Translations under genes and position numbers: made by a program
DNA from: Candidatus Latescibacterota bacterium
GTDB lineage: Bacteria > Latescibacterota > UBA2968 > UBA8231
Assembly (NCBI GenBank): GCA_965242865.1
Contig: CBDETK010000013.1
Location: forward strand, 2,080,001-2,144,000
Reading direction: 5' to 3'
Length of the DNA: 64,000 nucleotides
Part shown: one piece after another, positions 46,208 to 63,421 of the stretch
Layout: the number at the start of each line of letters is the position of its first letter
How positions within the stretch are numbered: the first letter of the stretch is position 1
The notes under the pieces: model-generated
Told to the model about the DNA's origin: nothing
Databases searched by the model: none
Seen by the model: only the letters and a program-made list of their open reading frames with translations

Positions 46208-46646
46208 GCTCTGGCGTAAACTGCGCGACAAAGCGTACCGAGACGGGTACACGGAATCTCAGCTTTCCATTGAGGTCCCTTTTCAGATCCGAGCCATCCG
46301 CAAAGCACGCGGCTGGACGCAAGCCCAGCTCGCCGAGCGGAGCGGCATTCCGCAAGCGCGGATATCCCACATTGAACAGGCCGGCCGGGATCCGCTGTCG
46401 TTGCGGACATTGTACCGATTGGCAGCCGCCTTTGACGTCGGCTTGCAGGTACAGTTTGTCCCGTTCAGCGAGTTGGTACGGCGGGAAGCGGCTTTTGATC
46501 CGGAGACGTTTCGCGTCCCTAGCTTTGCAGAGGACCATGTAGAGAAGGCCGTACCGACTAGCGATATGTCGGTGTCAACGGAGCCTTACGCGACCAACTC
46601 CAAGCGTACGCCCAAGGTACACGGCAGGGTGGCCCAACCTGAATGA
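46191..46646 (+). CDS. XRE/HTH_3 antitoxin (HigA-like)
   Basis: QIRAIRKARGWTQAQLAERSGIPQARISHIE...LRTLYRLAAAFD. Confidence 0.8.
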   Translation: MRSIFKLWRKLRDKAYRDGYTESQLSIEVPFQIRAIRKARGWTQAQLAERSGIPQARISHIEQAGRDPLSLRTLYRLAAAFDVGLQVQFVPFSELVRREAAFDPETFRVPSFAEDHVEKAVPTSDMSVSTEPYATNSKRTPKVHGRVAQPE

Positions 46647-46716: not shown

Positions 46717-49700
46717 TTGACTGAATTCTTTGAACAGCCCGTCCTCAACTCGCCGTATGAGCGTCCGAGGCGGCATTGGGAACTAGATGAGAGCGGGCAG
46801 CCGACCCAGCAGATCGTCGAAAGCCGCCGGGCAGCCGAGTTCATCACCCCGATCCCGCAGCCCAAGAAGCGCGAGGGAGCAGCCGCGCAACAGGCCGCGC
46901 TGGTGTTTGACGCGGCCGCGCAACAGCTCGAAGCCGCCGGCCAGCAATACGACCTGACGGCCATCATCAATGGGGTTCGCCAGCAGGTTGACCGCTGGCG
47001 CGATCTACCAAACCCCAGCCAATGGCAGGTGACGCCTGAGACGGCCCGCCTGCTCCAGCACTGGCGGCACCACCGCTTCAGCGGCATTCGGCCCTTCTTC
47101 TGCCAAGTCGAAGCGGTCGAGACCGCGATATGGCTCACCGAAGTCGCGCCGCGCATGGGGCGACGCGGCCAGCGCTTCCTCAACCATCTGGCGCAGGCCA
47201 GCCCAGACCTGCCGCGGCTGGCGCTCAAGCTGGCAACCGGCACCGGCAAGACCACGGTCATGGCGATGGTGATCGCTTGGCAAACCGTCAACGCGGTGCG
47301 CCGGCCCCAAAGTCGCCGCTTCACGCGCGGCTTCTTGGTCGTCACGCCCGGCATCACCATCAAGGACCGCCTGCGCGTACTCCAGCCCAACGACCCGGAC
47401 AGCTACTACCAGAGCCGCGAGTTGGTTCCCAGCGACATGCTCCCGGACTTGGAAAAGGCCAAGATCGTCATCACCAACTACCACGCCTTCAAGCGGCGCG
47501 AACGCTTGGAGCTTTCCAAGGGCGGGCGTTCTTTGCTACAGGGACGGGGCGAGACGCTCGCGACCTTGGAGACCGAAGGGCAAATGCTGCAACGGGTCAT
47601 GCCCGAACTCATGGGCGTCAAGAACGTCTTGATCCTCAACGATGAAGCGCACCACTGCTACCGCGAAAACCCGGGCGAGGGCGAGGAAGGTGCGCTCCGG
47701 GGCGACGACCGCAAGGAAGCCGAAAAAAACGCGGAAGCGGCGCGGCTGTGGATTTCGGGGCTGGAAACCGTCGGCCAAAAACTCGGCGTCAACCGGGTGC
47801 TCGACCTGTCGGCCACGCCGTTCTTTTTGCGCGGGTCCGGGTACGCCGAAGGCACGTTGTTCCCTTGGACGATGTGCGACTTCTCGCTCATGGACGCGAT
47901 TGAATGCGGCATCGTCAAGCTGCCCCGGGTGCCGGTGGCCGACAACATCCCCGGCGGCGACATGCCCAAGTTCCGCAACCTCTGGGACCACATCCGCCCC
48001 AACATGCCCAAGAAGGGACGCGGCAAGGGCGAGGAACTCGATCCGCTCAATCTGCCGGTGGAGTTACAGACCGCGTTGGCCGCCCTGTACGGACACTACG
48101 AGAAAACCTTTGAGCTGATGGAAGCGGCGAGCATTGGTGTCCCGCCGTGTTTTATCGTGGTCTGCAACAATACCGCGACTTCCAAGCTGGTACACGACTA
48201 CATCGCGGGCTTTTACCGCGGCACCACGCTGGTACATGGTCGCCTAAAGCTATTTCGCAACTTTGACGAGCAGGGCAACCCATACCTCCCGCCGCGCACA
48301 CTGCTGATCGACAGCGAACAACTCGAGTCCGGCGACGCGCTGGACAAAAACTTCCGCGCCGTGGCTGCCGACGAGATCGACCGCTTTCGGCGAGAAATCA
48401 TCGAGCGCACCGGCGACCGTCGTCAGGCCGACAACATCAGCGATGCAGCACTGCTCCGCGAGGTGATGAACACCGTGGGCAAACCGGGCCGGCTGGGGGC
48501 TTCGATTCGCTGCGTGGTGTCCGTGTCCATGCTGACCGAAGGGTGGGATGCCAATACCGTCAGCCACGTGCTCGGTGTGCGCGCTTTTGGGACGCAACTG
48601 CTGTGCGAGCAGGTCGTTGGCCGAGCGCTGCGCCGGCAGTCGTACGATCTCAACGAGGACGGCCTGTTCGATGTGGAGTACGCGGATGTCTTGGGCATCC
48701 CGTTTGACTTTACGGCCAAGCCCGTGGTGGCGCCGCCCAAGCCACCGCGCGAGACCGTGCAGGTGCGGGCCGTGCGACCGGCGCGCGACGCGCTGGAAAT
48801 CCGTTTCCCGCGGGTGGCCGGGTATCGAGTGGAATTGCCGGCCGACCGGCTCGCCGCCGAGTTCAACGAGGACTCGGTGCTGGAGCTGACGCCCGATCTG
48901 GTCGGCCCGTCGAGTACGCGGAACGAGGGGATCATCGGCGAGGGCGTGGACCTCGATCTGGTGCATACCAACGACCTGCGGACCGCAACCCTGCTTTTTC
49001 ACCTGACCCAGCGGCTGCTCTATGAAAAGTTCCGCGATCCGGGCGAAGAGCCTAAGCTCTACCTCTTCGGCCAGCTCAAGCGCATCACCAGCGAGTGGCT
49101 CGACACCTGTCTCGTCTGCAAGGGCGGCACCTATCCGGCCCAACTCATGTATCAAGCACTGGCGGACACGGCCTGCGAGCGCATCTTTGCCGCCATCACG
49201 CGCAAGGGCATTGACCATCGGCCAGTCAAAGCCGTGCTCGATCCGTACCATCCCATCGGTTCGACCGCCCACGTCCATTTCAACACGACCCAAACCCGCC
49301 GCTGGCAGACCGACGCCCGCCGGTGCCACCTCAACTACGTCGTCCTCGACAGCGACTGGGAAGCGGAGTTTTGTCGCGTCGTCGAAGCCCATCCGCGCGT
49401 CAAAGCCTACGTCAAGAACCACAATTTAGGCTTGGAGGTGCCCTACCGCTCTGGCTCGCAGCCGCGGACGTACCGGCCGGACTTTATCGTGCTGATCGAC
49501 GATGGCAACGGCGACGACCTGCTGCACCTAATCGTCGAGATCAAGGGGTATCGGGGGGAAGACGCCAAGGACAAGAAGGCGGCTATGGACACCTATTGGG
49601 TGCCTGGGGTGAATCAGCACGGGGACTGCGGCCGCTGGGCTTTTGCCGAGTTTGCGGATGTGTACGAGGTGGAAGCCGCGTTTAACGAGATGATCAAACA

Positions 49701-49731
49701 ACGCGCCGTTGGCCCGGTTTCGACCGAGTAA
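46717..49731 (+). CDS. Type III-like restriction endonuclease/helicase Res subunit (BPTD_3080-like)
   Basis: N-terminal PVLNSPY..P.RHW. Motifs KLATGTGKT, NDEAHHCY, LSATP, MLTEGWD, EQVVGRALRR. C-terminal nuclease YRPDF...EIKG. Confidence 0.88.
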   Translation: MTEFFEQPVLNSPYERPRRHWELDESGQPTQQIVESRRAAEFITPIPQPKKREGAAAQQAALVFDAAAQQLEAAGQQYDLTAIINGVRQQVDRWRDLPNPSQWQVTPETARLLQHWRHHRFSGIRPFFCQVEAVETAIWLTEVAPRMGRRGQRFLNHLAQASPDLPRLALKLATGTGKTTVMAMVIAWQTVNAVRRPQSRRFTRGFLVVTPGITIKDRLRVLQPNDPDSYYQSRELVPSDMLPDLEKAKIVITNYHAFKRRERLELSKGGRSLLQGRGETLATLETEGQMLQRVMPELMGVKNVLILNDEAHHCYRENPGEGEEGALRGDDRKEAEKNAEAARLWISGLETVGQKLGVNRVLDLSATPFFLRGSGYAEGTLFPWTMCDFSLMDAIECGIVKLPRVPVADNIPGGDMPKFRNLWDHIRPNMPKKGRGKGEELDPLNLPVELQTALAALYGHYEKTFELMEAASIGVPPCFIVVCNNTATSKLVHDYIAGFYRGTTLVHGRLKLFRNFDEQGNPYLPPRTLLIDSEQLESGDALDKNFRAVAADEIDRFRREIIERTGDRRQADNISDAALLREVMNTVGKPGRLGASIRCVVSVSMLTEGWDANTVSHVLGVRAFGTQLLCEQVVGRALRRQSYDLNEDGLFDVEYADVLGIPFDFTAKPVVAPPKPPRETVQVRAVRPARDALEIRFPRVAGYRVELPADRLAAEFNEDSVLELTPDLVGPSSTRNEGIIGEGVDLDLVHTNDLRTATLLFHLTQRLLYEKFRDPGEEPKLYLFGQLKRITSEWLDTCLVCKGGTYPAQLMYQALADTACERIFAAITRKGIDHRPVKAVLDPYHPIGSTAHVHFNTTQTRRWQTDARRCHLNYVVLDSDWEAEFCRVVEAHPRVKAYVKNHNLGLEVPYRSGSQPRTYRPDFIVLIDDGNGDDLLHLIVEIKGYRGEDAKDKKAAMDTYWVPGVNQHGDCGRWAFAEFADVYEVEAAFNEMIKQRAVGPVSTE

Positions 49732-49939
49732 CTGGAGTTTGCCGCGATAGGGGTTGCTCACTTATTACACGACAGCAGCCGCCCGTCCGCCAAGGAAGGA
49801 GGGCATGATGCGTTCATGGATTCCCGCTGTTGCGAGAATGACCGAACCAGCGGCCCGCCTGCCGAAGGATCGAGGGCATCTTGCCCTCGTCGAGGGCGGG
49901 ACGCCCTCGATCCCGGATGTGTACTTAGGAGGAATGGGA

Positions 49940-51415
49940 ATGCTTTGGGATAGTGATCGCTTGTTGTTGCAACTTGAACTCGGTGAGGACAGCCGCGTTG
50001 AGTTCAAGGAAGCTGTGTTTAGCGGCAACCGCGTCCGCGCACCGCATCGGGACGCCATCGCCGACGAGTTGGCCGCTTTTGGCAACACCATCGGCGGCAC
50101 CTTGATCTTCAGCGTGTCCGACGACGGTGCAGTGCGGTTGATGAGCCGACAACAGCTGGACGCGCTCGAAGCCTTCGTCGGCGAGCTTTGCTCGGATAGC
50201 ATCCGTCCCCCGTTGGCGTTTGTCACCCAACGGCTCGCGCTGCCCGATGGTTCGTTTGTGCTAGTCGTCGCCGTCGAACAGAGCGCGTTGGTCCACAAGA
50301 GTCCCGGGGGCTACCTGTCCCGCCAAGGTAGTTCCAAGCGAGAGCTGTCACCGGAGGCATTGAACCGTTTGTTTCAGCAGCGGGCGCGTTCTGGCTTGCT
50401 CGGGCCGGACGAAGGGATCGTCGCTGGCACCGGGGTCAACACGTTAGACGCGACCCTAGCGGATCGTTTCCTGAGTTCGCGCGCGACCGAGCCTACAACG
50501 GTCCAACTCACAAAGCTGGGGCTGGTGCGGGAGGACGACAGCGGCGTGCTCCGCGCCACGGTGGCCGGGGTGCTGCTTTGCACGACGCGCCCGGATGAGT
50601 ATATACGCGGCGCACTGATCGAGGCGGTGCGCTATCGCGGCACAGTGTCGGGCCGTGCGAGCCAGCTCGATGCCGCGTCCATCACCGGCCCGTTGGACCA
50701 GCAGATCCGCGATGCCGTCCACTTCGCTCGGCTCAATACGCGGGTCGCGGCGCGCAAGGCCCCTGGACGCGTAGAGACTCCGCAGTTTAGTCCGCGCACC
50801 CTGTTTGAGGCCATCGTCAACGCCGTGGTCCACCGCGACTACTCGGAAAAGGCGAAGATACGGCTCTTCATTTTTGACGACCGCTTCGAGTTGTACTCGC
50901 CGGGTGCTTTGCCCAACACCCTGCCTATTGAGGCCATGCGCAATCGACAAGCCACTCGCAACGAAACGCTCGCGTCCATTCTCCGCATGCTCGCGGTCGG
51001 GGATATTGCCGGGGCCGGGGATCGGCAGTATTTCTTGGAGCAACGCGGCGAAGGGGTTCCGGTCATTTACGAGCAGACCCGGGCGCTGACCGGGCGCGAG
51101 CCAGAGTATGAACTGCTTGGCGGCCCAGAACTGCGGCTGACGATACCGTCCGCTCGTCCGCCGGTATCGGGCATCCAAGGGGAAGTGTCGGTATCTGCGG
51201 GCGGTCAGCCGCTTGCCGGCGCACAGGTCGTTGTGCTGTATCCCAACAAGACTTGGATGGAGGAAGCAACCGATACGTTTGGCCGGGTCGCTTTTGGGTT
51301 CCATTCGGAACTTCCCATCACTGTTTTTTGCGCGGCCTCAGGGTATGGTGCTCACGTGGAGCGGGATTGGCACCCGCCGGAACCGCTCGCCGTGCCGCGT
51401 CTTGGGCGTAGATGA
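49940..51415 (+). CDS. AlbA_2 (Schlafen-like) DNA-binding plus HATPase_c_4 (RecG-C-like) protein, C-terminus probably truncated
   Basis: AGGAGG at 49927-49932. Motifs GEDSRVEFKE, AAFGNTIGGTLIFSVSD, EAIVNAVVHRDYS, ELYSPGALP, RNETL, RGEG. Confidence 0.8.
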   Translation: MLWDSDRLLLQLELGEDSRVEFKEAVFSGNRVRAPHRDAIADELAAFGNTIGGTLIFSVSDDGAVRLMSRQQLDALEAFVGELCSDSIRPPLAFVTQRLALPDGSFVLVVAVEQSALVHKSPGGYLSRQGSSKRELSPEALNRLFQQRARSGLLGPDEGIVAGTGVNTLDATLADRFLSSRATEPTTVQLTKLGLVREDDSGVLRATVAGVLLCTTRPDEYIRGALIEAVRYRGTVSGRASQLDAASITGPLDQQIRDAVHFARLNTRVAARKAPGRVETPQFSPRTLFEAIVNAVVHRDYSEKAKIRLFIFDDRFELYSPGALPNTLPIEAMRNRQATRNETLASILRMLAVGDIAGAGDRQYFLEQRGEGVPVIYEQTRALTGREPEYELLGGPELRLTIPSARPPVSGIQGEVSVSAGGQPLAGAQVVVLYPNKTWMEEATDTFGRVAFGFHSELPITVFCAASGYGAHVERDWHPPEPLAVPRLGRR

Positions 51416-52247
51416 AAACGACGAACTCATCGACACCGCAGCCGAAGCCAAGCTCGGCTACGGCGAAAAACAGGACTTCGCCGCCATGATCTTGGACAAC
51501 CTCAAAACCTCCGGCGTCCAGCAGGCGCACAAAGAGGACAAAATCGCCTTCTCCGGCATCAAACCTTGGCCCGGCGACCTCGTCTGCGCCGAAGGAACCT
51601 ACACCGAAGGCGACGCGGACGCCGGCGCGGAGAAACGCGCTGGCATCTTCGTCGGCCCGGAATTTGGCACTGTCTCCCGCCCGGATCTCGTACTCGCCGT
51701 GCGCGAGGCCGCCGACGCCAACTTCGACGTCCTCATCACCTGCGCCTTCAACTACGACGCCCACGCCTCCGAGTTCAACAAACTCGGCCGCGTCCCCGTG
51801 CTCAAGGCCCGCATGAACGCCGATCTACACATGGCCGACGACCTCAAAAACACCGGCAAGGGCAACCTGTTCGTCATCTTCGGCGAGCCAGACATCGACA
51901 TCCTCGACGCACCGGACGATCAAATCCAAGTCAAGGTCAACGGCGTAGATGTGTTCCATCCCAACACCGGCGAAATCCGCAGCGACGACGCCGACGGCAT
52001 TGCCTGCTGGTTCATCGACACCGACTACAACGAGGAGAGCTTCTTCGTCCGCCACGCCTACTTCCTCGGCGCCAACGACCCGTACAAAGCACTGCGAACG
52101 ACGCTCAAAGCCGAGATCAACCCAGAAGCCTGGGAAACCCTCCACAACGACACCTCTCGCCCGTTCGCCAAGCCAGCGTCCGGCCGCATTGCGGTAAAGG
52201 TGATCAATCATCTGGGCGACGAGGTGATGAAGGTGTTTCGGGTGTGA
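51396..52247 (+). pseudogene. C-terminal fragment of the cognate site-specific DNA methyltransferase (Mod); catalytic N-terminal part missing
   Basis: RVLGVDENDEL...GPEFGTV...MNADL...GNLFVIFGEPD...WFIDTDYNEESFFV...RIAVKVINHLGDEVMKVFRV resembles the C-terminal part of methylases partnered with this Res type. No DPPY or FxGxG motif and no credible start. Confidence 0.75.
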
Positions 52248-52255
52248 GGGGGAGT
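52212..52255 (+). repeat. Mod 3'-end repeat, copy 1 (native)
   Basis: CTGGGCGACGAGGTGATGAAGGTGTTTCGGGTGTGAGGGGGAGT. Confidence 0.9.
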
Positions 52256-52264
52256 TGATAATCC

Positions 52265-55200
52265 ATGTCTATCCCTGACCAAAGTCATATCAACCGAGTC
52301 CGCGACGCCCTTTGGCAACGTTCGGGCGGCGGTGCGTCCGTCATGGTTGGGAGCGGATTCAGTAGAAATGCTCTCAAAACCCGCCCCGACGCAAACGACC
52401 CGCCGACATGGCGCGAGGTGGCAGAAGCGGTATATGACAAGCTATATAGAGACCGCGATGCGATTGCGGAAGCCTCGCAAACGAGCGACTTCTTGAGGTT
52501 GGCCCAAGAGTATGAAGTTGCGTTTGGACGTGGGGATCTGCACCGCTTCATCCGAAACCTGATCCGGGACGACGATTTCAAGCCCGGCGATCTACATACG
52601 CGGTTGCTACGGCTTCCTTGGCGCGATGTCTTCACAACCAATTGGGATACCCTTTTGGAACGGGCGCGTATTTCCGTGGCTGGTCGCGCTTACAGCGTCG
52701 TCCGAAATATGGACGAAATTCCGCAGGCGAACCGGCCGCGGATCGTCAAACTGCACGGATCACTCCCTGCTCATTTTCCGCTGATCTTTACGGAAGAAGA
52801 TTACCGAACTTATCCGAGGAAATTTGCTCCTTTCGTGAACACCGCTCAGCAAGCAATGATGGAAACCGTGTTCTGCCTGATTGGTTTCTCAGGGGACGAT
52901 CCGAACTTCTTGGAGTGGTCGGGATGGGTACGCGACAATCTGGGGAAAGCGGCACCGAAGATATATCTAGCCGGGTGGTTAAACCTGTCGTCTCACAGGC
53001 GCCGAATGCTTGAAGATCGCAAGGTCGTCCCTATCGATCTTGCACTTCATCCGAAAGCTAGCGAGTGGCCGGAGTCCCTTCGTCACCAATACGCAACCGA
53101 GTGGCTTCTGTACACGCTGGAACGTGGAAAACCCTATGATGTGACGGCTTGGCCTTCGACAATCGATCAAGAACCTGTGGAGGTGCCAACACACCTTGAT
53201 CCAATTGAAGTGGTCACATCCGTTACTCCCAAAAAGGAGCCATACTCCCCTTCTGAATTGAGTGAATCTGAGAACGTCTCGGATTCGGTCCGGCAACTAC
53301 TTGAAATTTGGCAGCACAACCGGAAAATCTATCCCGGCTGGTTGGCCGTTCCGAGCAGCGAACGAACATTCCTGAGCCTATCTACAGATGAATGGGAACC
53401 GACGATTCTACAGGTGCTCCCTGACTTTGCGCCGATAGACCGGCTGAATGCCATCCGCGAATTAGTGTGGCGCAAGGAAATTCTGCTGGAGCCAATCTCA
53501 CCTCAGCTTGAATCTGCGGCGGAAGAAGCCCTAAAGCCGATAGATTGCCACCGCCGTACTATAGACGGTGTCGTCGATTCGACGATTGAATGGGCCGCTG
53601 TTAGAGAGGCTTGGCGCACGGTCGCGCTCGCGCTTGTGACGATTGCACGATTTCGCTTTGATGAAGATGCCTTTGAGAAGCGGATCGCGGCACTATCACC
53701 TTTCCGTAACGATCATCCCGACGTCGCTCAGCGAATACATCATGAGCGTTGTCTATGGGCAATTTACGCGCTTGACTTCGAGAGATTGGAAGACTTGGTC
53801 AAGGATTGGCAGACTGAAAATTGCGATCCGGCCTGGATGGTACGGAAAGCCGCCATCCTTTCCGAAATGGATCGAAAGGACGACGCAATTGAATTGCTCA
53901 ATAACGCGCTTTCGGCTATTCGTGATAACCCCGGAGATGAGCACAGTTTAGCCGGTCCTTCCCGCGAGGGTTGGGCACTGTTGCAGGCACAGGCGTTTGA
54001 AAGAGAATTTAGTGGACAAGTAAAAAACCAGATCGACGCCCCTCTAGCCTTTACGAGATGGCGGGAGTTGGCATCTCTGAAATGCGATGCGTTCACAGAG
54101 AAGCACTGGTACGCCGAAGCAATCAAGGGCAGTGACAAAAAGGATGAAAAACTGCCCTTCGATCTCGGCCATCAGCAAGGAGATACAATTCATTTTTCCA
54201 ATGCCGAATATGCCCGACAAATCGCAGCTTACCGAGCGATCCGACTCTCCGAAGTGGCCGGACTACCTCCAGTCGTAGCCTCGGATATATTAAAACTTGC
54301 TGCGGGTAAATTGTCCATGACGAATCCAGAGATGGCCGTACGTCTAGTTCTCCGAGTTTCGGACTACGAAGACCCCATGCTTACCCAGGTTTTTTCGCGC
54401 ACTCGGGTGGCCACCCTTTCAGCAGATTCAGCGAAGACACTGGCGGAGATCTGTAATAGCTTGATCGAGTATGCGCTACCCCGGATGGTTAGCACGGCTG
54501 CACGTGGACTCCGCCCTATATTCTGGATTGAGCGAATGGGTGTCGCAATGGAGGCACTATCACGGCTGGTCCTTCGTCTAGACCCCGATACGGCAGAAGC
54601 CATCTTCAACAAGGCACTGGAGCATTATCGAAACCAGCAAGTTGCACAATATCTACAGATGGCAGCCCCTGTCCGAGACCTGTTGAAACGCTCGGGGGAA
54701 ACTCTGCCGGAAGATCGCCGAACTGCTCGTGCTCTCGATTTGTTGAGTTCGCCTATCATCGGAATGGACAACTTTACGGCGAAATCCGCTATCCGCTATC
54801 CAGATCCTGGAGAGTTGCTACAAGACGATGAACTTTTTTCGCTGCCCCGGACTGCCGACAATGAGCACCGCTGGCAGGAAGTCGTCAGTTTATTGGTGCG
54901 TGGCCTACATGCTGGAGGTGAAGCACACAAGCGAGCGTCCCTTAGAATAGTGCCTGTGGGGTTTTGGGGCCGACTGACAGAAGCTGAATCGTCGCAAGTT
55001 GCTCAAGCTCTTTGGAGCGAAAAGTACACTGGTCCCAACGATCTGCCCGGCGAAACTGATCTCTTGGACTGGGTATTTATCTTGCTCCCCGAACCTGAGC
55101 TTGGTTTGGCGGAACAGCGATTCCGTCGCAAATGGCTCACCGCCGGCAATGCGCCACAAGGAGATGCGCCTAGTCACGACGATATTCTCTGGCAAGTCGG

Positions 55201-56056
55201 GAACGCCATATCTTGTCTGAAAAATCACCAGCGTCCACTGGAGCTATCGGAAGACGAACGGGCCTACCTGATTAAGGTAGTTGAGCAGTGGTCAGATACT
55301 CCAGTGCCAAGTCATTTCTTCGGTCCTATTGAGAGGCAACTCCGCGAACCTACCCGGCGTGCGATCATCGGCCTGCGCATGGTCATTTCTGAAATCCAAA
55401 TTCCTATGCCTATCGGTGAAAAGCTCTACAAAAAAATTCAAGCCTTAAAAGGTTCCGACACGCCAGGACTAGAGCTTATCGCCGGCATCGTTAGGGCATT
55501 GCCTGATCATCTTGATAAAATCGCTTTATTGGTGAGGATGGAATTGACATCTGATGATAGCACCTCGGCCAAGAACGCAGCATGGGGATTGCTCTTTTGG
55601 TTGGTCGAGTCCGCCTCAACACCTGAACTCTGTCCTCCGTCGGACGATTTGATTCGTGAAATCGGCATCATAATCGCTACCCGTAGGAAAGTGGTTCTCG
55701 CACAGGCATTGCAGACCGCTAAGTGGGTGTTTGCGGAGGGGAGCGAAGCTCAGCGAGAAGTCATTGGGCAATTGGCGATACAGGGTCTCGGTTATCTGGC
55801 CGAGGAGTTACGCTACGACAGGGAACACGATCAGGGCGATGACTTCGACGTACCGCTTCTGCGTTGGGGCTGTGCCCACCTTGCCTTGGCAATGGCGGAG
55901 CGTGGCTTTAGCGACGACCCGACAGTTACTCGCTGGTTGGAGATTTCCAAAGAAGACCCCCTCCCCGAGGTGCGACACGCAAAGCATCCCTCTCTCGCTC
56001 GTCAGCGTAAGGAAGCGGAGGGCACTGACGACGCACCAACTTCTCAGGCCGAGTAG
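52265..56056 (+). CDS. Large SIR2_2-domain protein, putative NAD+-depleting antiphage effector (Dsr-like architecture)
   Basis: VMVGSGFS, FTTNWDTLLE, IVKLHGS, LIGFSGDDPNF..W, followed by a ~950-aa helical C-terminal region. Confidence 0.82.
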   Translation: MSIPDQSHINRVRDALWQRSGGGASVMVGSGFSRNALKTRPDANDPPTWREVAEAVYDKLYRDRDAIAEASQTSDFLRLAQEYEVAFGRGDLHRFIRNLIRDDDFKPGDLHTRLLRLPWRDVFTTNWDTLLERARISVAGRAYSVVRNMDEIPQANRPRIVKLHGSLPAHFPLIFTEEDYRTYPRKFAPFVNTAQQAMMETVFCLIGFSGDDPNFLEWSGWVRDNLGKAAPKIYLAGWLNLSSHRRRMLEDRKVVPIDLALHPKASEWPESLRHQYATEWLLYTLERGKPYDVTAWPSTIDQEPVEVPTHLDPIEVVTSVTPKKEPYSPSELSESENVSDSVRQLLEIWQHNRKIYPGWLAVPSSERTFLSLSTDEWEPTILQVLPDFAPIDRLNAIRELVWRKEILLEPISPQLESAAEEALKPIDCHRRTIDGVVDSTIEWAAVREAWRTVALALVTIARFRFDEDAFEKRIAALSPFRNDHPDVAQRIHHERCLWAIYALDFERLEDLVKDWQTENCDPAWMVRKAAILSEMDRKDDAIELLNNALSAIRDNPGDEHSLAGPSREGWALLQAQAFEREFSGQVKNQIDAPLAFTRWRELASLKCDAFTEKHWYAEAIKGSDKKDEKLPFDLGHQQGDTIHFSNAEYARQIAAYRAIRLSEVAGLPPVVASDILKLAAGKLSMTNPEMAVRLVLRVSDYEDPMLTQVFSRTRVATLSADSAKTLAEICNSLIEYALPRMVSTAARGLRPIFWIERMGVAMEALSRLVLRLDPDTAEAIFNKALEHYRNQQVAQYLQMAAPVRDLLKRSGETLPEDRRTARALDLLSSPIIGMDNFTAKSAIRYPDPGELLQDDELFSLPRTADNEHRWQEVVSLLVRGLHAGGEAHKRASLRIVPVGFWGRLTEAESSQVAQALWSEKYTGPNDLPGETDLLDWVFILLPEPELGLAEQRFRRKWLTAGNAPQGDAPSHDDILWQVGNAISCLKNHQRPLELSEDERAYLIKVVEQWSDTPVPSHFFGPIERQLREPTRRAIIGLRMVISEIQIPMPIGEKLYKKIQALKGSDTPGLELIAGIVRALPDHLDKIALLVRMELTSDDSTSAKNAAWGLLFWLVESASTPELCPPSDDLIREIGIIIATRRKVVLAQALQTAKWVFAEGSEAQREVIGQLAIQGLGYLAEELRYDREHDQGDDFDVPLLRWGCAHLALAMAERGFSDDPTVTRWLEISKEDPLPEVRHAKHPSLARQRKEAEGTDDAPTSQAE

Positions 56057-56074
56057 CTTATTGACCCCCCAAAA

Positions 56075-56116
56075 GTGATGAAGGTGTTTCGGGTGTGAGG
56101 GGGAGTGCTACACTTA
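56075..56116 (+). repeat. Mod 3'-end repeat, copy 2
   Basis: GTGATGAAGGTGTTTCGGGTGTGAGGGGGAGT is identical over 32 bp to 52224-52255, and continues GCTACACTTA. Confidence 0.9.
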
Positions 56117-56150
56117 CTGACCGGGTAAACGATCAGAGAAAGCTGAGAAA

Positions 56151-56462
56151 ATGAAAAACATAACGCTGAGTGCTGACGAGCAGCTAATCGAAGCGGCGTA
56201 TCAACGCGCCGCAGAAGAGCACACTACGCTGAACGAGCAGTTTCGGCTGTGGCTCAAACACTACGTTCAATCCGAGCGGCAATCGTCAGCGGCACAAGGA
56301 ACATTGGCGGACTTTCTCCAAGGGCATATCGGCATCCTGCACAGCAGTGAATACGTGCCCGGCGGTGCTCGTATGTCGGTAGATAGCGGCAAAAAGGTGC
56401 TTGGGGCCAGTGAACTGAGACCGGCTGGGCAGAGTAGGCCAAAAACAGGAGACTCGCAATGA
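56151..56462 (+). CDS. Small ribbon-helix-helix antitoxin-like protein
   Basis: N-terminus MKNITLSADEQLIEAA...TTLNEQFRLWL shows an RHH pattern. Its stop overlaps the next start (ATGA). Confidence 0.55.
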   Translation: MKNITLSADEQLIEAAYQRAAEEHTTLNEQFRLWLKHYVQSERQSSAAQGTLADFLQGHIGILHSSEYVPGGARMSVDSGKKVLGASELRPAGQSRPKTGDSQ

Positions 56463-57877
56463 ACGAACTTGGGAACTCCACAGGCGCGACCCATCCCGAT
56501 GTTCGGATTTCGGCAACAAATTTCGGCCCCATCGCGAGCAGCACCGTCGATCTGCGCCCATTGACCGTATTCGTCGGTCCGAGCAATACCGGCAAGACTT
56601 ATTTCGCCACTTTGATTTACGCCTTGCACCGGATTCTGGGTGGATTTCCACGGCTTCCTAGTATGCGCCGCTATCGTCATCCCTTTTTTCAAGGGCTACC
56701 TTATGGACTGGCCACGGATGCTGAGGCACAGCAAGAGCTCCAAGACTTTCTCAAGAAGTTAGATGTCAAGGGGCGGACATTCAGGTTCTCCGACCTGCCC
56801 AGAAGTGTGCGCGATGCAGCACAGGCGGCTGTCAGTGATCCCGATTTTCTGGGCGAGTTTCTACAGACAGAACTCAGACGCTGTTTCGCTCTGGAGTCGG
56901 TTTCCGGTCTAGTTCGATTCTCCGGTCAATCCAACAGGATGGAGGTTGCGCTGGCTATCAGTGAACAAGAGCAAGACCTCTGGCGTTTCCGCATGGAGAT
57001 CGCCGAATCGGGTGCCATCACGGATGGACGAATCGCGGACCGTTTCCATGGCGACCCCTCGCACTGGATCGACTCTGTTCGCGAACGCGAGACGCATTAC
57101 TTGCCGGCCGCCCGCAGCGGTACCATGCAGAGCCATCGCCTCATCGCCAGTGCTCTCGTGGCGCGTTCCCCCCACGTGAGAATGGAACATTTTCCCGAGC
57201 TTCCGACGCTTTCAGGTGTAATGGCCGATTTCATGCAGCATCTCATCCTTTACGAAGAGCACCGATCAACCAACCCGTCAGTGAACGCACTAGCGGAAGT
57301 AGCGGAAGTACTGGAACGCGAGGTGCTGGCCGGACAGATTAGGACTAGGCGGTCCCTATCGGGAGGGTTCCCAGAATTTGTGTACCGACCGTATGCAACC
57401 GAAGAGGAGGTTCGCCTGACCCGCGTTTCATCCATGGTGTCCGAACTCGCTCCCGTTGTGCTGTTTCTCCGCGGTGCTATCGGACGTGGCGACACGGTCA
57501 TCATTGAGGAGCCCGAAGCGCATCTTCATCCCGCCGCCCAGACCCAGATGGCGGAGACCCTAGGGCGCATGATCTGCACAGGGATCCGAGCGGTGGTCAC
57601 GACGCACAGCGACTGGTTGCTCAAGGAACTCGGCAACCTGATGCGGGAGGGGGAACTAAAAGAGAAAACAGGGGAACCCCTTTCGGGTTCGCTCCGGCCA
57701 AGCGAGGTGGGAATCTGGTTATTCCGCAAGGATGGAACGTCGGGTTCGACCGTGGAGGAAATCCCGTTTGACCGCAGCGAAGGCGTGGAGCCTAATGAGT
57801 ACGAAGGCGTCGCTGAAGAACTTTACAACCGCTCAGCGAACCTACAAAACCAACTCGAGGAACGCGAGCATGAATGA
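56459..57877 (+). CDS. ABC-type AAA ATPase (AAA_15/AAA_21, AbiEii/OLD-like)
   Basis: NFGPI, Walker A GPSNTGKT, signature-like SSMVSEL, Walker B IIEEPEAHLHP, and TTHS. Confidence 0.85.
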   Translation: MNELGNSTGATHPDVRISATNFGPIASSTVDLRPLTVFVGPSNTGKTYFATLIYALHRILGGFPRLPSMRRYRHPFFQGLPYGLATDAEAQQELQDFLKKLDVKGRTFRFSDLPRSVRDAAQAAVSDPDFLGEFLQTELRRCFALESVSGLVRFSGQSNRMEVALAISEQEQDLWRFRMEIAESGAITDGRIADRFHGDPSHWIDSVRERETHYLPAARSGTMQSHRLIASALVARSPHVRMEHFPELPTLSGVMADFMQHLILYEEHRSTNPSVNALAEVAEVLEREVLAGQIRTRRSLSGGFPEFVYRPYATEEEVRLTRVSSMVSELAPVVLFLRGAIGRGDTVIIEEPEAHLHPAAQTQMAETLGRMICTGIRAVVTTHSDWLLKELGNLMREGELKEKTGEPLSGSLRPSEVGIWLFRKDGTSGSTVEEIPFDRSEGVEPNEYEGVAEELYNRSANLQNQLEEREHE

Positions 57878-58376
57878 GGTTCTCGACGAAATTCAGTCAC
57901 AAGTGGGCACCGACAACCTCAGCAATTCGTGCAGCCGCGATGGATGCCGGGTGTCCATGGAGGATGTTCCATCTCGTCGAGTCGTGATCGACGCGGATCG
58001 GGCGTTCCCGGCTCACTAGATGGAAGAAGGTAAACAATGCGATTATATCCTCTTTTTTACTAATGCAGGCCAAGACATTCTCTTCACGGTTCCGATGGAG
58101 CTCAAAAGCGGCGGTGTTGACGCATCGGCGGTGTCCGAGCAATTGCAACGGGGCGCGGAGTTCGCCGCTCGCTTCGTGCCGACAGCTTTCAGGACTATAT
58201 GCCACCCGGTCCTATTCCATGGCAAGAGCATTCACCCCAAGCAACGCAAGACGCTTAACCGCGCCAAGGTTCTCTTTCGCGGCCGCCAGTTGACTATCAA
58301 GACGGCACGCTGCAATCAACCCAAGAATCTGGCGCGTGTGCTAGGGGACGAGGTGATGAAGGCGTTTCGGGTGTGA
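57870..58376 (+). pseudogene. Putative PD-(D/E)xK nuclease partner of the ATPase, interrupted by an in-frame TAG at 58017-58019
   Basis: ATG 57870 overlaps the ATPase stop. The same frame continues past the TAG into CDY...ELKSG...EQLQ.G. It ends in LGDEVMKAFRV, which is the Mod tail. Confidence 0.6.
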
Positions 58377-58391
58377 GGAGTGCTGCACTTA
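58341..58391 (+). repeat. Mod 3'-end repeat, copy 3
   Basis: CTAGGGGACGAGGTGATGAAGGCGTTTCGGGTGTGAGGAGTGCTGCACTTA. The 5' part matches copy 1 and the 3' tail matches copy 2. Confidence 0.88.
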
Positions 58392-58413
58392 TGACTACTA
58401 AAAAGAGGTTCCT

Positions 58414-58644
58414 ATGAAAAAACAAACCATCCAATACACTTCGCCCATTGACGCGCTCATTGCCGTGACCAAGCGGTTGAGTACCTATGAAAATCAGCAA
58501 CAGATGGATTCGGGAGAGTTCTTTGACCAGTACAGCCGGGGGCAACTAGCCGACGACGCACAATTCGTCGATTGGGCCAACGATTACCGCCACTATTTGC
58601 AACTATTACAAAGTACCCTCAAAACACCGCCCGATGCCGCTTGA
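58414..58644 (+). CDS. Small antitoxin-like protein (TumA-like), without a downstream toxin
   Basis: AGAGG SD. QYTSPIDAL..KRLS.YE...MDS.EFF..Y..G.L.DD..F.DWANDY resembles TumA-type antitoxins. The last 39 nt overlap the convergent gene. Confidence 0.6.
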   Translation: MKKQTIQYTSPIDALIAVTKRLSTYENQQQMDSGEFFDQYSRGQLADDAQFVDWANDYRHYLQLLQSTLKTPPDAA

Positions 58645-59496
58645 ATAATTCTCATTAAATTGATTAGAGGGGGCATAAACAAGCCCGATTTTCTGCCTTT
58701 GTCTTTGGATTTTGTACAACGTTATGGCTGTGGGCTTTGGCCCTAAGGAACTCATGATTATGTTGTAAGAAGAGCCAAGTTGCTCCAAGACATCTTGGAT
58801 TGCGGACATTCCTCGATCTTCAGCGAAAGCATCTAACTCAAATCTCTCGCAGTCGTATTCTTTTTTGTATTTATCGATTATTTCATTATAAGTCTTCACA
58901 GCGTTCTCGTTCTGCGGAAAAGGCGATGGATGTTGAACGCCAAGCATTAGCTTTGCCGGCTCATACCAACTGATGGGCCTCTCTGCTCTTGAGGGATCAA
59001 AGCCCACAGTTACCAAAAGTGCTGTCTTAGCTGACGGGGCCGCAATCCCTGAGAGTTTATATACAAGCCGTGGAGCTCGGGGATCTCTGCTTAACCACTC
59101 GCTTCCATAGTTACTAGGACGGTGATACACGTACCGTGCTAGTATTGAATTTTGCTCAACTTGCCACAATACATACCAAATTATTTCGCGTGGCATAGTC
59201 GAGATATCAATTAAGGTCCCTCGACATTCTGCAATAACCCGTTCAATAGAGTCCAGTACTTTCCGCCAATTATCTGCGGGTTCGTCAATGTCAAGTTCTA
59301 CTGGAATATACTCAATACACCCAGCTTTGCATGTCTTTTCAACCTCATCTCGATTCGCTTGCGTTCGGTTCGCATAACTGCTGAAATAAAACACTAGCAC
59401 TTTCTGAAGGCCGATCTTCTCCAAATTACGCTCGAATCCTATTCTGAAGCGATCTTCCCAGCTCGCGAAAGTGACGAGTAAATTACTGTTGTTCAT
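58606..59496 (-). CDS. Hypothetical alpha/beta protein, possibly a tandem Rossmann/CARF-like fold
   Basis: Start MNNSNLLV overlaps the ATPase stop. Motifs SWEDR, LIDISTMPR, VGFD..RA, SLGPKP, VYA, YSSGIG. Confidence 0.65.
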   Translation of the reverse strand: MNNSNLLVTFASWEDRFRIGFERNLEKIGLQKVLVFYFSSYANRTQANRDEVEKTCKAGCIEYIPVELDIDEPADNWRKVLDSIERVIAECRGTLIDISTMPREIIWYVLWQVEQNSILARYVYHRPSNYGSEWLSRDPRAPRLVYKLSGIAAPSAKTALLVTVGFDPSRAERPISWYEPAKLMLGVQHPSPFPQNENAVKTYNEIIDKYKKEYDCERFELDAFAEDRGMSAIQDVLEQLGSSYNIIMSSLGPKPTAITLYKIQRQRQKIGLVYAPSNQFNENYSSGIGRCFEGTL

Positions 59497-61228
59497 CCCA
59501 TAACTCCATCTGGTTATCATCTTGGTGATTCAACCCTATATCAAGCGTTCCGCTTTCCGTCGCCTTCCAAAGAGCAGCGGCTGGTATCGAGACCCTTGCA
59601 TGCTGGCCATGTGGATCAAGACCGCGAATTGGCCAGAGGATTTTGTTTGGCATATAATGAGTTTCTCTTCTGCCTTCATCCTTAGCCGAACCACTTCGTA
59701 TGTATAATAGCTGTGCCTTCCGCAGTAATTCAATTAAGCGATTCAAATTGACCATTATATCTTGGTCCCGGCCAGAAATAGTAAATGACAGGGCACACGG
59801 CTCCGATGGATGGTGTAGAAGTCGATCGCGGAAATGGACAGCAAGGGCATCAAGCAGATTAAATATCCGTCGGCCATCTTCCATAGAACAGTCCTCAATA
59901 TCCTGCGCGACTCTGTCCTTTACCCACTCCCAAGTACGTTCGCTCCGTTCCAAAATAACCTTGGTTTGTATTTCTGAGGGTATATTGGAAATTCTCTCCA
60001 AGCCTCCTTCTCTTTCCGTTTCTTTCATCTTAGAAACTACGCTATCGAACATCCAAAAACACGGTTCGAGAAGATTTCGGATCACGCCGGTTGATATAAA
60101 CACTAGTGTTTCAAAACCGGAGTATGGTGGCCTATTCGCTTTTGATGGACGGTTCTTAAAATAATGCGCCCTTTTATGTTTATACACATAATCATTTATA
60201 GGCTTTCTGTTTTCTTCTCCAAATTTACGAACAGCCTCCTCTCGAACTATTTTCTCTGATTTTTCTAAGTCCCTTTCCATAGTAGCACTCACTGGAAAGA
60301 ATTCTTTGGGAGTGGCGGAAATAGATGCCTTCTTCAGCCGTCGCTCAATTAGACTGCAAGCGAGTTTGTAGAAATTGGTATTCTTGTTATGCAAAGGTGC
60401 TTCCAAGTCAATTTGTGTGTAGTCATGCCCTTCAAGAATCGATCCACCAGATGACGTGATTTTTGTTTGAGTACCAACTTTAGCGACCGCTACCTTAAAG
60501 CTAAAAAGAGAATGATCGCGATACGCTATCCAAGAGTTCAATGCGCGGACTTGATGTTCATTCAGCGCATGTGCATCATCAAGCAAAAGAAGAAAATGAG
60601 AATTTTTAAGCCGCGGAATTTTATTAGAACACATATTTAGAATTGGAACAAGTACAGATGCAAACGAAAACGTATTCTCATAGAACGTTTCCTCGTTTCC
60701 GCTATTGATCGTTCTTTGAGTGACCAATAACTCTCTCTGAAGGAACTGCTTAACGGCTTCAAAGAAACTTACACTTTCTGGCAACTCTCCTCCCATTACA
60801 AAATTCGTCTCACTATGTAGATGTGATTCGTCAGAACCTTCAAGTACATCAGGTATTTCTGCAAGAGTTTCAGCCAAGCCGTATGCGATTGACAATACGA
60901 GAAAATGCTCCGATAGCACAGACCCTTGAAAGTCGTTGAGCAGTTGATATTCTGTTTTGTGAGTTAGCGGCGTATTGCAGGGTATATACACACCGATTGC
61001 CGAGAACGATGGCTCTTTTCCTTCCCTCTCTGCGAGAAGTTTCTGAAGCCGCCACCTGTTAAATAGCAAGGCCATGGTTTTACCACTGCCACGTTCACCA
61101 ACCAAAAAGACATTGCGTTTGGATTGAATGAATCGAGAATAATTGAAGTCGTCAATGTAGTAGTCCACTATCATCTCATCAGTGAGGTTATTTGCGGCCT
61201 CGTACTCAAACGGATTATTGTTATTCAT
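59483..61228 (-). CDS. P-loop ATPase, ORC/CDC6-like (STAND-related)
   Basis: N-terminal NPF, Walker A GERGSGKT, Walker B LLLLDDA, GHDY, and YSGF..LV..STGVIRNLLE.C. Confidence 0.75.
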   Translation of the reverse strand: MNNNNPFEYEAANNLTDEMIVDYYIDDFNYSRFIQSKRNVFLVGERGSGKTMALLFNRWRLQKLLAEREGKEPSFSAIGVYIPCNTPLTHKTEYQLLNDFQGSVLSEHFLVLSIAYGLAETLAEIPDVLEGSDESHLHSETNFVMGGELPESVSFFEAVKQFLQRELLVTQRTINSGNEETFYENTFSFASVLVPILNMCSNKIPRLKNSHFLLLLDDAHALNEHQVRALNSWIAYRDHSLFSFKVAVAKVGTQTKITSSGGSILEGHDYTQIDLEAPLHNKNTNFYKLACSLIERRLKKASISATPKEFFPVSATMERDLEKSEKIVREEAVRKFGEENRKPINDYVYKHKRAHYFKNRPSKANRPPYSGFETLVFISTGVIRNLLEPCFWMFDSVVSKMKETEREGGLERISNIPSEIQTKVILERSERTWEWVKDRVAQDIEDCSMEDGRRIFNLLDALAVHFRDRLLHHPSEPCALSFTISGRDQDIMVNLNRLIELLRKAQLLYIRSGSAKDEGRRETHYMPNKILWPIRGLDPHGQHARVSIPAAALWKATESGTLDIGLNHQDDNQMELWDEQQ

Positions 61229-61233
61229 AATGG

Positions 61234-62232
61234 CTATCTCCGCGGGCATTTAGAAAGTAGGTCAGCAACAAGGGCATCAATTGAGTAAGCCGAATTTATG
61301 TCTGCAATCTCCTTTGTTTGGTCCCCAGGAATTACTATATCAGTCAATTTGAGCGGCATAAGATCAATATCGAGTATATCACTACCACAGTGAAAGTTAA
61401 AGGTAACTTGAGTGAACTTAAACGGTTCGAGAAGAGGACTATAATAGCGAGCGTACTGCCGTTCTTGATTGAGTTTTTGAATTCTCTGATAAGTACGGTT
61501 TAAGTGGTCTGAAAGATGTTTCTCACGGATCTCGTCGGTACTATCCACATCTATATCTATCTCGTACGTTAAAACAATTCGGTTGTTCTGACGGTCAATT
61601 AGAATGTTCGTACTAGACGCATAATCATGAAATTGTTGTGACTCTGGTTCATAAAGACCTTCCTTTTGCATAAAATCCGACGTTCGTTGAGGACCTTCCG
61701 CTAGTTCATCGGCAAAGCGAAGAATAGCTGCTAATTCGCGCAACCGTACACGGCTTCCTTCCAATTGATCGACTTCGCCAACTTCTTTGAGTGTATCCTG
61801 TGAACCGTCTTGTGCAGTTCCCGTATGGGCACGTGTGGATCGAACGATTAGCGTCTTTTCACGGCGGAGCGATGCATCCGTTCCGCGAATGCGATCAAAA
61901 ATGTTGGAGACATTCTTGTGATGATCGTTTCGTCCATAAACATTACCTGCATCATGGAAGATGATAAACATTCCGAGGCAATACATTTCGATACCTGATA
62001 GATCTTTGATCATGTCGTCGTCTGCGAGAAGACGAATGACGTTCTGCTTCACATTTGACACATGCGTTGCACCGTGATCGGAGAGACTTGGTTCAGCACC
62101 TTGAATGTTCGGGTACACTTCCCTTTCGAGCTTTGACTGGGCTTGCTCGTAGGCACTGGCGAGTTCTCTTCCCTTACTTCCTTCAAATTGTTCCAGAATT
62201 TTGTCGCGCAGTTGCTCGTCAAAAGTTGGCAC
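61234..62232 (-). CDS. HD-domain phosphohydrolase (type seen at the N-terminus of HD-HSP90-like conflict proteins)
   Basis: LSDHGATH, IIFHDAG, AHTG, LAAILRFADEL. Confidence 0.78.
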   Translation of the reverse strand: MPTFDEQLRDKILEQFEGSKGRELASAYEQAQSKLEREVYPNIQGAEPSLSDHGATHVSNVKQNVIRLLADDDMIKDLSGIEMYCLGMFIIFHDAGNVYGRNDHHKNVSNIFDRIRGTDASLRREKTLIVRSTRAHTGTAQDGSQDTLKEVGEVDQLEGSRVRLRELAAILRFADELAEGPQRTSDFMQKEGLYEPESQQFHDYASSTNILIDRQNNRIVLTYEIDIDVDSTDEIREKHLSDHLNRTYQRIQKLNQERQYARYYSPLLEPFKFTQVTFNFHCGSDILDIDLMPLKLTDIVIPGDQTKEIADINSAYSIDALVADLLSKCPRR

Positions 62233-62256
62233 CTTTTTACTCCCTATATTGTTCTC

Positions 62257-63318: not shown

Positions 63319-63377
63319 TGTAATCGAGTTCTATATAAACTCGCTCATGGTGTTAAGAATCTGACTTCCGCTGGGGA

Positions 63378-63421
63378 CGCCGTGTCTCGCCTAAAACTCG
63401 GATGTATGGCGAGACACGGCG
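63378..63421. repeat. Perfect 14-bp inverted repeat (REP-like hairpin) at the island boundary
   Basis: CGCCGTGTCTCGCC (63378-63391) and GGCGAGACACGGCG (63408-63421) with a 16-nt loop. Confidence 0.75.

Follow-up and report, generated by a model that had tools for sequence, protein, structure and literature searches.

Scars of a methyltransferase gene end probably record serial defence-gene insertion at a chromosomal hotspot in a Latescibacterota bacterium

Genomic islands at the 3′ ends of tRNA and protein genes carry an integrase, a fixed crossover core and an attL/attR duplication, and integron arrays combine IntI, attI and attC hairpins with co-oriented, mostly promoter-less cassettes, each of which is followed by a repeat. 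A further mode, insertion with long target duplication, reportedly goes back to a paper of 2000 from the Kobayashi laboratory on Helicobacter pylori. In this mode, according to the accessible text of Furuta, Abe & Kobayashi 2010 (PMC2853133), restriction–modification (R-M) genes lie between long direct repeats of the target that differ in length (46-423 bp, sometimes overlapping a gene 3′ end), in the absence of any other mobile element. Core defence hotspots, such as cDHS1 of Pseudomonas aeruginosa, are called enigmatic and their assembly is left for future work in the accessible portion of Johnson et al. 2023 (PMC10250203), and hotspots of Escherichia coli are mostly tied to mobile elements in that of Hochhauser et al. 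2023 (PMC10121019). Here we describe a defence-gene island in a 64,000-nucleotide (nt) stretch of a Candidatus Latescibacterota bacterium (GCA_965242865.1, contig CBDETK010000013.1, positions 2,080,001 to 2,144,000; hereafter the window), in which the 3′ end of a Type III-like methyltransferase gene (mod) is found three times between defence genes. These copies are probably scars of serial gene insertion rather than functional attachment (att) sites, and they lie in a chromosomal defence hotspot with the layout res–slot 1–mod–slot 2–dnaK/uvrB.

The three copies of the mod end are direct repeats (copies 1 to 3, Table 1). Copy 1 closes the reading frame of the resident mod (...LGDEVMKVFRV-stop), copy 2 begins 18 nt past the stop codon of a Dsr2-like gene (56056), and copy 3 supplies the final 12 codons and the stop of a small open reading frame (ORF) at 58020-58376 (...LGDEVMKAFRV-stop). 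A 32-mer of the tail has exactly two matches in the window, 52224-52255 and 56075-56106, at which copies 1 and 2 agree at 32/32 nt and have TGAGGGGGAGT in common; none of 100 dinucleotide shuffles gave two or more matches. A repeat finder returned all three copies as one direct family, in which, relative to 52212-52249, the stretch 56063-56100 is identical over its last 26 nt and 58341-58378 agrees at 35/38 nt. Copies 1 and 3 share a 12-nt head, CT(G/A)GG(C/G)GACGAG, which reads CTGGGCGAC in the resident gene and CTAGGGGAC in copy 3, the latter being a variant known from other genomes, and copies 2 and 3 share GCT(A/G)CACTTA after the tail. Across the whole genome (5,997,474 bases) there are no tail copies beyond these three, with a reversed-pattern control at zero. 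The original prediction, made from the window alone, had described an exact recurrence 18 nt after the stop of a SIR2 gene and a third copy from 58341 onward, and had proposed that the tails bound successive groups of defence genes behind an R-M locus; all of this holds, the blocks being Dsr2-like, RHH-like/ATPase/small ORFs, and TumA. The extra tail that it had noticed behind copies 2 and 3 is likewise real and corresponds to the native intergenic sequence downstream of mod, which stands behind the tail in relatives. From copy 3 through this intergenic element into tumA the window resembles relatives with an uninterrupted mod–tumA junction, 58341-58604 being collinear with positions 6041-6306 of locus L047. 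The intergenic motif was itself considered as a second repeated true site and was rejected, as it occurs only directly behind tails, before tumA or GmrSD.

Related genomes place the copies in a common frame. A search of 76 genomes of the order with the 26-nt core, allowing up to 3 mismatches, found it in 27 (a control pattern gave 0 everywhere), and genomes G010, G011, G045 and G053 hold multiple copies within 2-7 kb, as does the window. Approximately 20 kb around each of the 27 places were taken and oriented, and their ORFs were called and clustered (loci, genomes and families are given below by L, G and f numbers). The resulting arrangement is res–slot 1–mod–tail–slot 2–dnaK (minus strand)–uvrB–ABC ATPase, with dnaK lying downstream inside the taken stretch in 16/27 loci and the res 3′ end upstream in 18/27; the mod of the relatives encodes 913-1112 amino acids (aa) with an N6_N4_Mtase domain. 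Slot 1 holds HepT/MNT, BrnT, VapB-like, HicB-like, M78+helix-turn-helix (HTH)/DUF4411 or a Schlafen gene. Slot 2 holds Dsr2, TumA(-TumE), an ATPase block (PD-T4-4_A-like), GmrSD/HEC-06, IetA/IetS, SIR2-HerA, HEC-01A/B, AriA/AriB-like (PARIS-like), Ppl-like, FRG/PDC-S15, NucC-like or PDC-M24A/B. More than ten different defence systems thus occupy the slot across loci between conserved flanks, as is characteristic of a core defence hotspot, and the cassettes next to mod are all co-oriented with it. The variable cargo bounded by mod-tail sequence that the original prediction had expected in related genomes is therefore found there. Transposases of insertion sequences (IS) are present in two of the relatives' loci only, L055 and L058. 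Positions 5830-6058 of L058 (G054) hold a second, decayed copy of the locus, in which ~150 nt from the start of res run almost straight into the final 67 nt of mod, and this joint adjoins IS1595- and IS4/5-type transposase genes.

Secondary relics of the mod tail occur in 11/28 loci of the order, and their extents vary widely. By self-comparison, the duplicated mod 3′ lengths are 32 and 38 nt in the window and 30, 40, 51, 58, 66, 117, ~500 and 994 nt in relatives, within an overall relic range of 14-994 nt. On a profile spanning the final 400 nt of mod, relics behind Dsr2 cover positions 319-395 in L034, L037 and L057, 373-399 in the window and just 14-19 nt in L038 and L045. Behind the ATPase block they cover 280-398 in L034 (73% identical), 363-399 in the window and 362-399 in L051, from which the block itself is deleted, and a decayed relic follows the same block in L059. 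TumA(-TumE) is followed by internal pieces of ~290-355 in L037, L043 and L051 and of 340-391 in L054, and a 70-aa gene in L046 and L034 also has a relic behind it. Left ends are spread over profile positions 2-375, and 19/23 right ends reach position 391 or beyond, at the mod stop. All strong relic matches are direct; inverted relics were rejected, the opposite-strand control having given just weak matches inside dnaK (E of at least 0.013). The 3′ end of res is likewise duplicated in slot 1, as a 157-nt piece behind the M78+HTH/DUF4411 pair of L041 (2453-2609) and as a weak 48-nt piece in L052 (2644-2691, oriented).

The pattern extends beyond this family. The C-terminal part of mod is encoded in 61/168 genomes of the phylum, with 81-92% amino-acid identity across families f1, f3 and f4, and four loci from f3 and f4 carry relics of 113, 144, 210, 227, 237 and 334 nt, located behind Ppl-like+Schlafen genes, a DRT UG5–nitrilase block, HEC-01A/B+Schlafen, Schlafen alone, a CBASS operon and PDC-M66A/B. 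G083, from another family, possesses an isolated 104-nt relic (L096 8096-8199) that is ~89% identical to the mod of relatives and lies just upstream of a PD-T4-4_A-like ATPase gene; it is the sole match of the mod query in that genome. Comparison with resident and foreign mod genes divides the relics by origin. Those nearest the resident mod (own versus best other genome) are in L035 (0.982 versus 0.955), L095 (0.958 versus 0.805), L094 (0.92 versus 0.85) and, for one relic, L034 (0.922 versus 0.855), and by these values they are clearly copies of the resident tail. Dsr2-linked relics show 0.85-0.88 identity to their own mod versus 0.89-0.94 to those of other genomes, and the relics of L092 and L093 show 0.72-0.83 identity; both sets are old or imported.

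The window's own mod has been truncated by illegitimate joining. Homology to the relatives' mod starts sharply at 51387 and homology to their Schlafen gene stops at 51398, where two blastn blocks overlap, and the 12-nt TCGCCGTGCCGC in between is found in both genes of six relatives compared. Because the homology ends are sharp and both genes share these 12 nt in relatives, the joint is a deletion at microhomology, which cost mod its initial ~650 codons and with them the methyltransferase domain, and altered the last codons of the Schlafen gene. The "Mod gene" of the original prediction is accordingly a mod 3′ end, of which only the last 286 codons remain. Its PADLOC MTase_III match (PDLC03632) is limited to profile positions 681-983 and it has no Pfam match, whereas the full-length relatives carry N6_N4_Mtase (PF01555). 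The Type III-like R-M system therefore looks dead in this strain, judging from its reading frames, although res (1004 aa) is still open. A distant mod paralogue (34% identity, 880-aa frame) lies ~270 kb upstream at C13:1859672-1860481. The same R-M family is present on Pseudomonas and Rhizobium plasmids (L097, L098) in the order Res (BPTD_3080 family)–methyltransferase–3′-5′ exonuclease, where the mod 3′ part has ~70-74% nt identity and the Rhizobium record has extra hypothetical genes interspersed among the components. In L092, L093 and L095, the NERD+UvrD-like genes located downstream may represent the third of these components.

We propose that new cargo enters directly behind the mod stop and that homology-dependent or illegitimate recombination copies a stretch of the mod 3′ end, differing in length from case to case, in the process. 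This might proceed by single-crossover (Campbell-type) integration of circularised DNA composed of a mod 3′ fragment and the donor's cargo from behind mod, or by joining of a donor allele to the recipient, with homology at one junction and microhomology at the opposite one. By either route each older cassette would come to have a mod-tail relic behind it, the left end of which would be an illegitimate joint and the right end of which would run past the stop into native downstream sequence. That illegitimate joining happens at this locus follows from the 12-nt microhomology deletion in the window. Relics would then travel with their cassettes between genomes and decay over time. Those still similar could serve as substrates for RecA-type unequal crossing-over, by which cassettes are reordered, duplicated or deleted, and those that move with a cassette could give it homology for docking, possible examples being the small ORF with a mod-derived end in three genomes and the relic of G083. 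The recombination route and any present-day activity are inferred.

Public sequencing runs provide a view of the array in other samples. Thirteen runs hold part of the stretch, and four of them (X9, X12, X13, X1) were compared with positions 49000-64000, all as assembled contigs; runs with a partial share are labelled sponge metagenomes. In X9, the likely source run (share 0.99), contigs break at copies 1 and 2, as an exact 32-mer would lead one to expect, and one contig, 56077-64000, crosses copy 3. Segment depths in this run are 167 before copy 1, 145-160 for the Dsr2-like gene and 141 after copy 2. Joints expected of tail-to-tail deletions or circles were not among the joints listed for X9, contigs being uninformative on rare events. 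X12 and X1 share a joint from 58604 to 56113, by which cassette 2 begins behind the end of tumA; a further joint in X12 runs from 56025 to 58392, and X1 has one from 56100 to 58401 with 24 letters between, resembling the native intergenic element. The alternative order in these runs is Dsr2–tail–tumA–cassette 2. The cassette 2 contig of X12, joined after tumA, has 4 differences in 1809 nt (99.8% identical), whereas the Dsr2 gene of the same run differs at 91/1129 (8%); a near-identical cassette therefore occupies another array position in a strain with 8% divergence in the adjacent gene. With depths of 76 versus 168-194, X12 may contain more than one strain, and the linkage of these contigs is putative. 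The original prediction had also suggested that recombination between copies could excise single cassettes; recombination involving the copies is plausible, given the different cassette order in other runs with break points at the tail or intergenic element. Separately, the mod 3′ part at 51505-52506 is seen in X9, X12, X13 and X1 and has a summed contig depth 40-70x that of neighbouring genes in X9, so that many co-occurring genomes or loci seem to share a conserved mod 3′ piece.

Several observations weigh against serial insertion by general recombination as the account of these copies. The evidence for recombination consists of assembled contigs, which drop rare variants, and no event was directly observed. 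The 32/32 match of copies 1 and 2 may stem from gene conversion instead of recent duplication, and a recombinase encoded by one of three tyrosine recombinase genes elsewhere in the genome may act in trans. Among the 28 loci, no relic was found behind the Iet, SIR2-HerA or AriA/B-like genes or behind the low-GC block of the window; many cassette borders thus have no relic, and other insertion modes must also operate. Finally, five left ends fall within ~13 nt of one another at profile positions 362-375 (window copies 2 and 3, L034 8348, L035 11913, L051 10603), and this grouping could hint at a preferred crossover point. In an alignment by eye, the window, L038 and L037 match one another in their Dsr2 3′ flanks, and on this ground we read the grouping as shared ancestry combined with decay further upstream in the relics.

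The original prediction had gone further and cast the conserved tail as a recombination or attachment site of an integron-like array without attC sites. Its statement that the window lacks an integrase is borne out among the 39 ORFs scanned, which yielded no integrase or resolvase (PF00589 or a resolvase domain) in a scan limited at positions 1-43,700 to ORFs of at least 200 aa, and none was found among 45 family representatives and 46 singleton ORFs (at least 140 aa) of the 27 relatives' loci. The genome does hold three PF00589 tyrosine recombinase genes, which would have to act from a distance, the nearest being ~618 kb away. An attC-like hairpin was rejected, since each of the three copies, folded as single-stranded DNA for either strand, was less stable than shuffles (z values of +0.48 to +1.51). 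Special conservation of the tail was rejected as well: the last 863 nt of mod show 0.78-0.97 majority identity (0.68-0.96 at third codon positions), the last 53 nt fall in the same range as the rest, and identity drops to 0.42 right after TGAGG. Nor does a strict order with the newest cassette next to mod apply, as it would at attI, for in L034 and L092 the identity of relics to the resident mod is unordered by position. Phage carriage was also considered, and no exact match of a degenerate 24-nt core was found in viral contigs. The marks of an integron, namely an adjacent integrase, attC-type hairpins and uniform boundaries at a fixed crossover point, were not found here. The variable repeat extents with their scattered left ends, the lack of a fold and of special conservation, the parallel duplication of the res end and the unordered ages of the relics together argue against a dedicated site, as do the decay of some relics to 72-83% identity and the many borders without a relic. 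A site-specific system in which the mod tail serves a dedicated recombinase encoded elsewhere, inserting and excising single cassettes, is for these reasons very improbable, even though direct repeats bound the cargo, the cassettes next to mod are co-oriented, some relic left ends lie close together and cassette order varies between samples with break points at the tail or the intergenic element.

Two other explanations concern how much DNA was joined, and whether it was joined by the cell at all. If whole res–mod–cargo loci had been concatenated in tandem and then eroded, the relics would be remains of complete second mod genes. The long relics would suit this, especially the 994 nt of L035, which has a Schlafen gene before it, and the ~500 nt of L034 and 334 nt of L095; so would the recurrence of a Schlafen gene followed by a mod 3′ piece in the window, L035, L092 (twice) and L093, the erosion at microhomology seen in the window, the closeness of Dsr2-linked relics to the mod of other genomes and the res start joined to a mod tail in L058. 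However, the long relics of L035, L094 and L095 are nearest the resident mod (0.92-0.98 versus 0.81-0.955), which fits duplication in place, and no second res remnant precedes any slot 2 relic in the examined loci. Concatenation also overlaps with the second route proposed above, from which it differs mainly in the amount of incoming DNA; as the sole explanation we regard it as unlikely, if less so than an integron-like system. An assembly artefact, in which alternative alleles of co-existing strains were strung together at the shared 32-mer, had been named by the original prediction as the result that would overturn it. Contigs of the short-read source run do break exactly at copies 1 and 2, and that run holds many relatives of the mod 3′ part, but its equal, non-additive segment depths are at odds with a chimera of alternative alleles, a single contig spans copy 3, and the window lies on a 5.6-Mb contig, with comparable arrays on 4.5- to 7-Mb contigs from other species (G010, G011, G045 and G053). 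We consider such an artefact extremely unlikely. Serial insertion behind mod, leaving scars of variable length, remains the likely reading. A bolder version, which we offer tentatively as less likely than not, is that mod-tail pieces act as portable homology "address labels": a cassette would retain a mod 3′ piece from an earlier stay behind this widespread mod family, and RecA could then dock it behind any member of the family, or at a relic within an existing array, without an integrase. The presence of a near-identical cassette 2 elsewhere in the X12 array, the G083 relic before the same ATPase family and the fixed co-orientation with mod are consistent with this. If true, it would amount to homology-addressed cassette exchange across a bacterial class, possibly via proteobacterial plasmids with the same R-M family, and the relics would be readable growth rings of defence-island building.

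The features of the island are collected in Table 1.

Table 1. Features of the defence island and its borders (window positions)
Feature	Position	Strand	Evidence or remark
Gp49/HigB-like toxin	45842-46207	+	Pfam PF05973, E 1.4e-5
Xre-type HTH	46191-46646	+	PF01381, E 2.7e-15
Res, BPTD_3080-family restriction endonuclease, 1004 aa	46717-49731	+	NCBIfam NF046055, 1342 bits; Pfam ResIII (PF04851) and RE_endonuc (PF19778)
Schlafen AlbA_2 + HATPase_c_4 protein, 553 aa	49754-51415	+	Pfam PF04326 and PF13749; cargo of the res–mod slot
mod remnant	51387-52247	+	last 286 codons and stop of a ~930-990-aa Type III methyltransferase
12-nt microhomology TCGCCGTGCCGC	51387-51398	+	joins Schlafen 3′ region to internal mod point
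Tail copy 1	52212-52255	+	resident mod end: 12-nt head, 26-nt core including stop, then GGGAGT
Cassette 1: Dsr2-like SIR2 defence protein, 1263 aa	52265-56056	+	PADLOC and NCBIfam
Tail copy 2	56075-56125	+	relic: last 26 nt of mod and GGGAGT, then remnant of native mod-downstream intergenic element
Cassette 2: four ORFs	56151-58376	+	
RHH-like ORF, 103 aa	56151-56462	+	weak VapB-like match only, E 0.047
AAA_15 ATPase, closest to PD-T4-4_A	56459-57877	+	Pfam, PADLOC
49-aa ORF, ends in TAG (58017-58019)	57870-58016	+	no family match
118-aa ORF, last 12 codons from mod tail	58020-58376	+	no family match
Tail copy 3	58341-58399	+	relic: last 38 nt of mod, 35/38 versus copy 1; continues into native intergenic element and tumA
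Cassette 3: orphan antitoxin TumA, 76 aa	58414-58644	+	NCBIfam NF045776, 126.9 bits (cut-off 100); PADLOC PDC-M44A
Low-GC block, four genes: CARF-like, ORC/CDC6-like ATPase, HD-CE, C5 DNA methylase	58605-63523	-	
dnaK 3′ part	63528-64000	-	conserved right frame; uvrB and ABC ATPase next, beyond the window

Up to ~45.8 kb the window is ordinary chromosome, with surface proteins of the type IX secretion system (T9SS) type, AddAB-like nucleases and a dehydrogenase; positions 6974-36281 contain a run of large paralogous secreted proteins with CHU_C/FlgD_ig (T9SS-type) C-terminal domains, together with two similar peptidyl-prolyl isomerase (SurA-like) genes. A toxin–antitoxin-like pair (45842-46646) forms the left edge of the island. 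Res, which retains both helicase and endonuclease domains and has 81-85% nt identity to its relatives, belongs to the conserved left frame of the locus. The "SIR2" label of the original prediction can be refined to Dsr2-like: the PADLOC Dsr2 match has E 5.4e-174 over residues 6-1229, and the NCBIfam Dsr2 equivalog score of 607.6 bits is under its cut-off of 1400. The label "TumA-like" is confirmed by its NCBIfam score, and "nuclease", given to the ORF at 58020-58376, is not, there being 0 matches to that ORF in Pfam, PADLOC and NCBIfam. The mod-derived end of this 118-aa ORF recurs in two relatives, L034 and L059. The TAG of the preceding 49-aa ORF is followed immediately by the in-frame ATG of the 118-aa ORF, and L059 has TGA at the same spot; 57870-58376 may represent either a pair of very small genes or a single gene interrupted by a stop. 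No promoter or terminator was found at the tail copies; positions 51300-58800 contain 1 promoter-like site (shuffle mean 4.0) and 7 terminator-like sites (shuffle mean 8.0), neither count exceeding its mean.

TumE–TumA is a toxin–antitoxin system described in the accessible text of PMC10584680. TumE (DUF6516, PF20126, E 2.6e-22) is located behind TumA in L043 (oriented 1237-1614), and several relatives keep TumA alone; in the window no TumE toxin follows tumA, the 3′ end of which diverges past 58604. TumA stands directly before Dsr2 in 5 relatives, and the two were considered as a functional pair; the pairing was rejected on two grounds, namely the position of TumE behind TumA in L043 and the mod relic that lies between TumA and Dsr2 in L037 and L043. 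The low-GC block (4.9 kb, 41-49% GC versus ~60%), with its minus-strand genes at 58606-63318, takes the place of ~122 nt separating tumA from dnaK and cuts into the 3′ end of tumA. None of the 27 relatives' loci contains it, and its borders are free of mod relics; it is nearly absent from run X12, and fragments of it with 0 differences are present in run X13.

How defence islands and core defence hotspots assemble is an open question, and the open-access literature searched held no paper pairing "defense island" or "hotspot" with "target duplication". If the mod-tail relics are insertion scars, they record individual insertions of different length and age, in many species and at least three families, and this mode of accretion becomes testable: relic ends give joints, divergence gives relative age, and comparison of resident and foreign mod separates duplication in place from import. 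The locus further suggests that an R-M gene end can serve as a recurrent landing site even where the system it belonged to is already dead.

Set beside known systems, the locus shares individual traits with each. As in integron arrays, co-oriented and mostly promoter-less cassettes are stacked behind one point with a repeat after each, in an order that varies by strain; unlike in those arrays there is no IntI, attI or attC hairpin, the repeats derive from a gene next to the array, have arbitrary lengths and decay, and a cassette often holds several genes. As in islands at 3′ ends, the gene end forms direct repeats around the foreign DNA, with the target gene remaining in frame up to its stop, but there is no integrase and repeat extents vary ~70-fold. 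With core defence hotspots, as portrayed in the accessible text of the two hotspot papers (PMC10250203, PMC10121019), it shares conserved flanks, highly variable defence content that is not obviously any one mobile element, and the proposed exchange through the flanks by homologous recombination; it differs in lying inside and behind an R-M operon and in keeping mod-tail scars that record insertions, of which those same portions report none for cDHS1 or the E. coli hotspots.

The anatomy of the locus fits insertion with long target duplication. The Furuta screen, in the form given in the accessible text (PMC2853133), took direct repeats of >30 bp that align with a single-copy target, inserts of <20 kb without other mobile-element genes, and homologues of both R and M inside. 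The window repeats are 32 and 38 nt, with single-copy mod-tail–tumA junctions in L043, L047 and L054 and in-place duplicates in L035, L094 and L095, and the window inserts of 3.85 and 2.28 kb have no transposase or integrase inside. These inserts contain Dsr2-like, ATPase/small-ORF, TumA and other genes and are not R-M pairs, which puts the locus outside that screen, as a variation on the same pattern. In both cases, as far as the published account is accessible, defence genes lie between direct repeats of >30 bp that are single-copy in insert-free relatives, the repeat length varies by event, the insert is without a transposase or integrase, and the repeat can overlap a gene 3′ end. Compared with the same account, the cargo here comprises Dsr2, a toxin–antitoxin pair, ATPase systems, CBASS, DRT and others in place of R-M genes, one target, the end of the mod family, is used repeatedly to give tandem arrays with up to four relics, and the pattern recurs in at least three families of a bacterial class. 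The locus would thereby carry insertion with long target duplication beyond R-M genes, into many further kinds of defence system.

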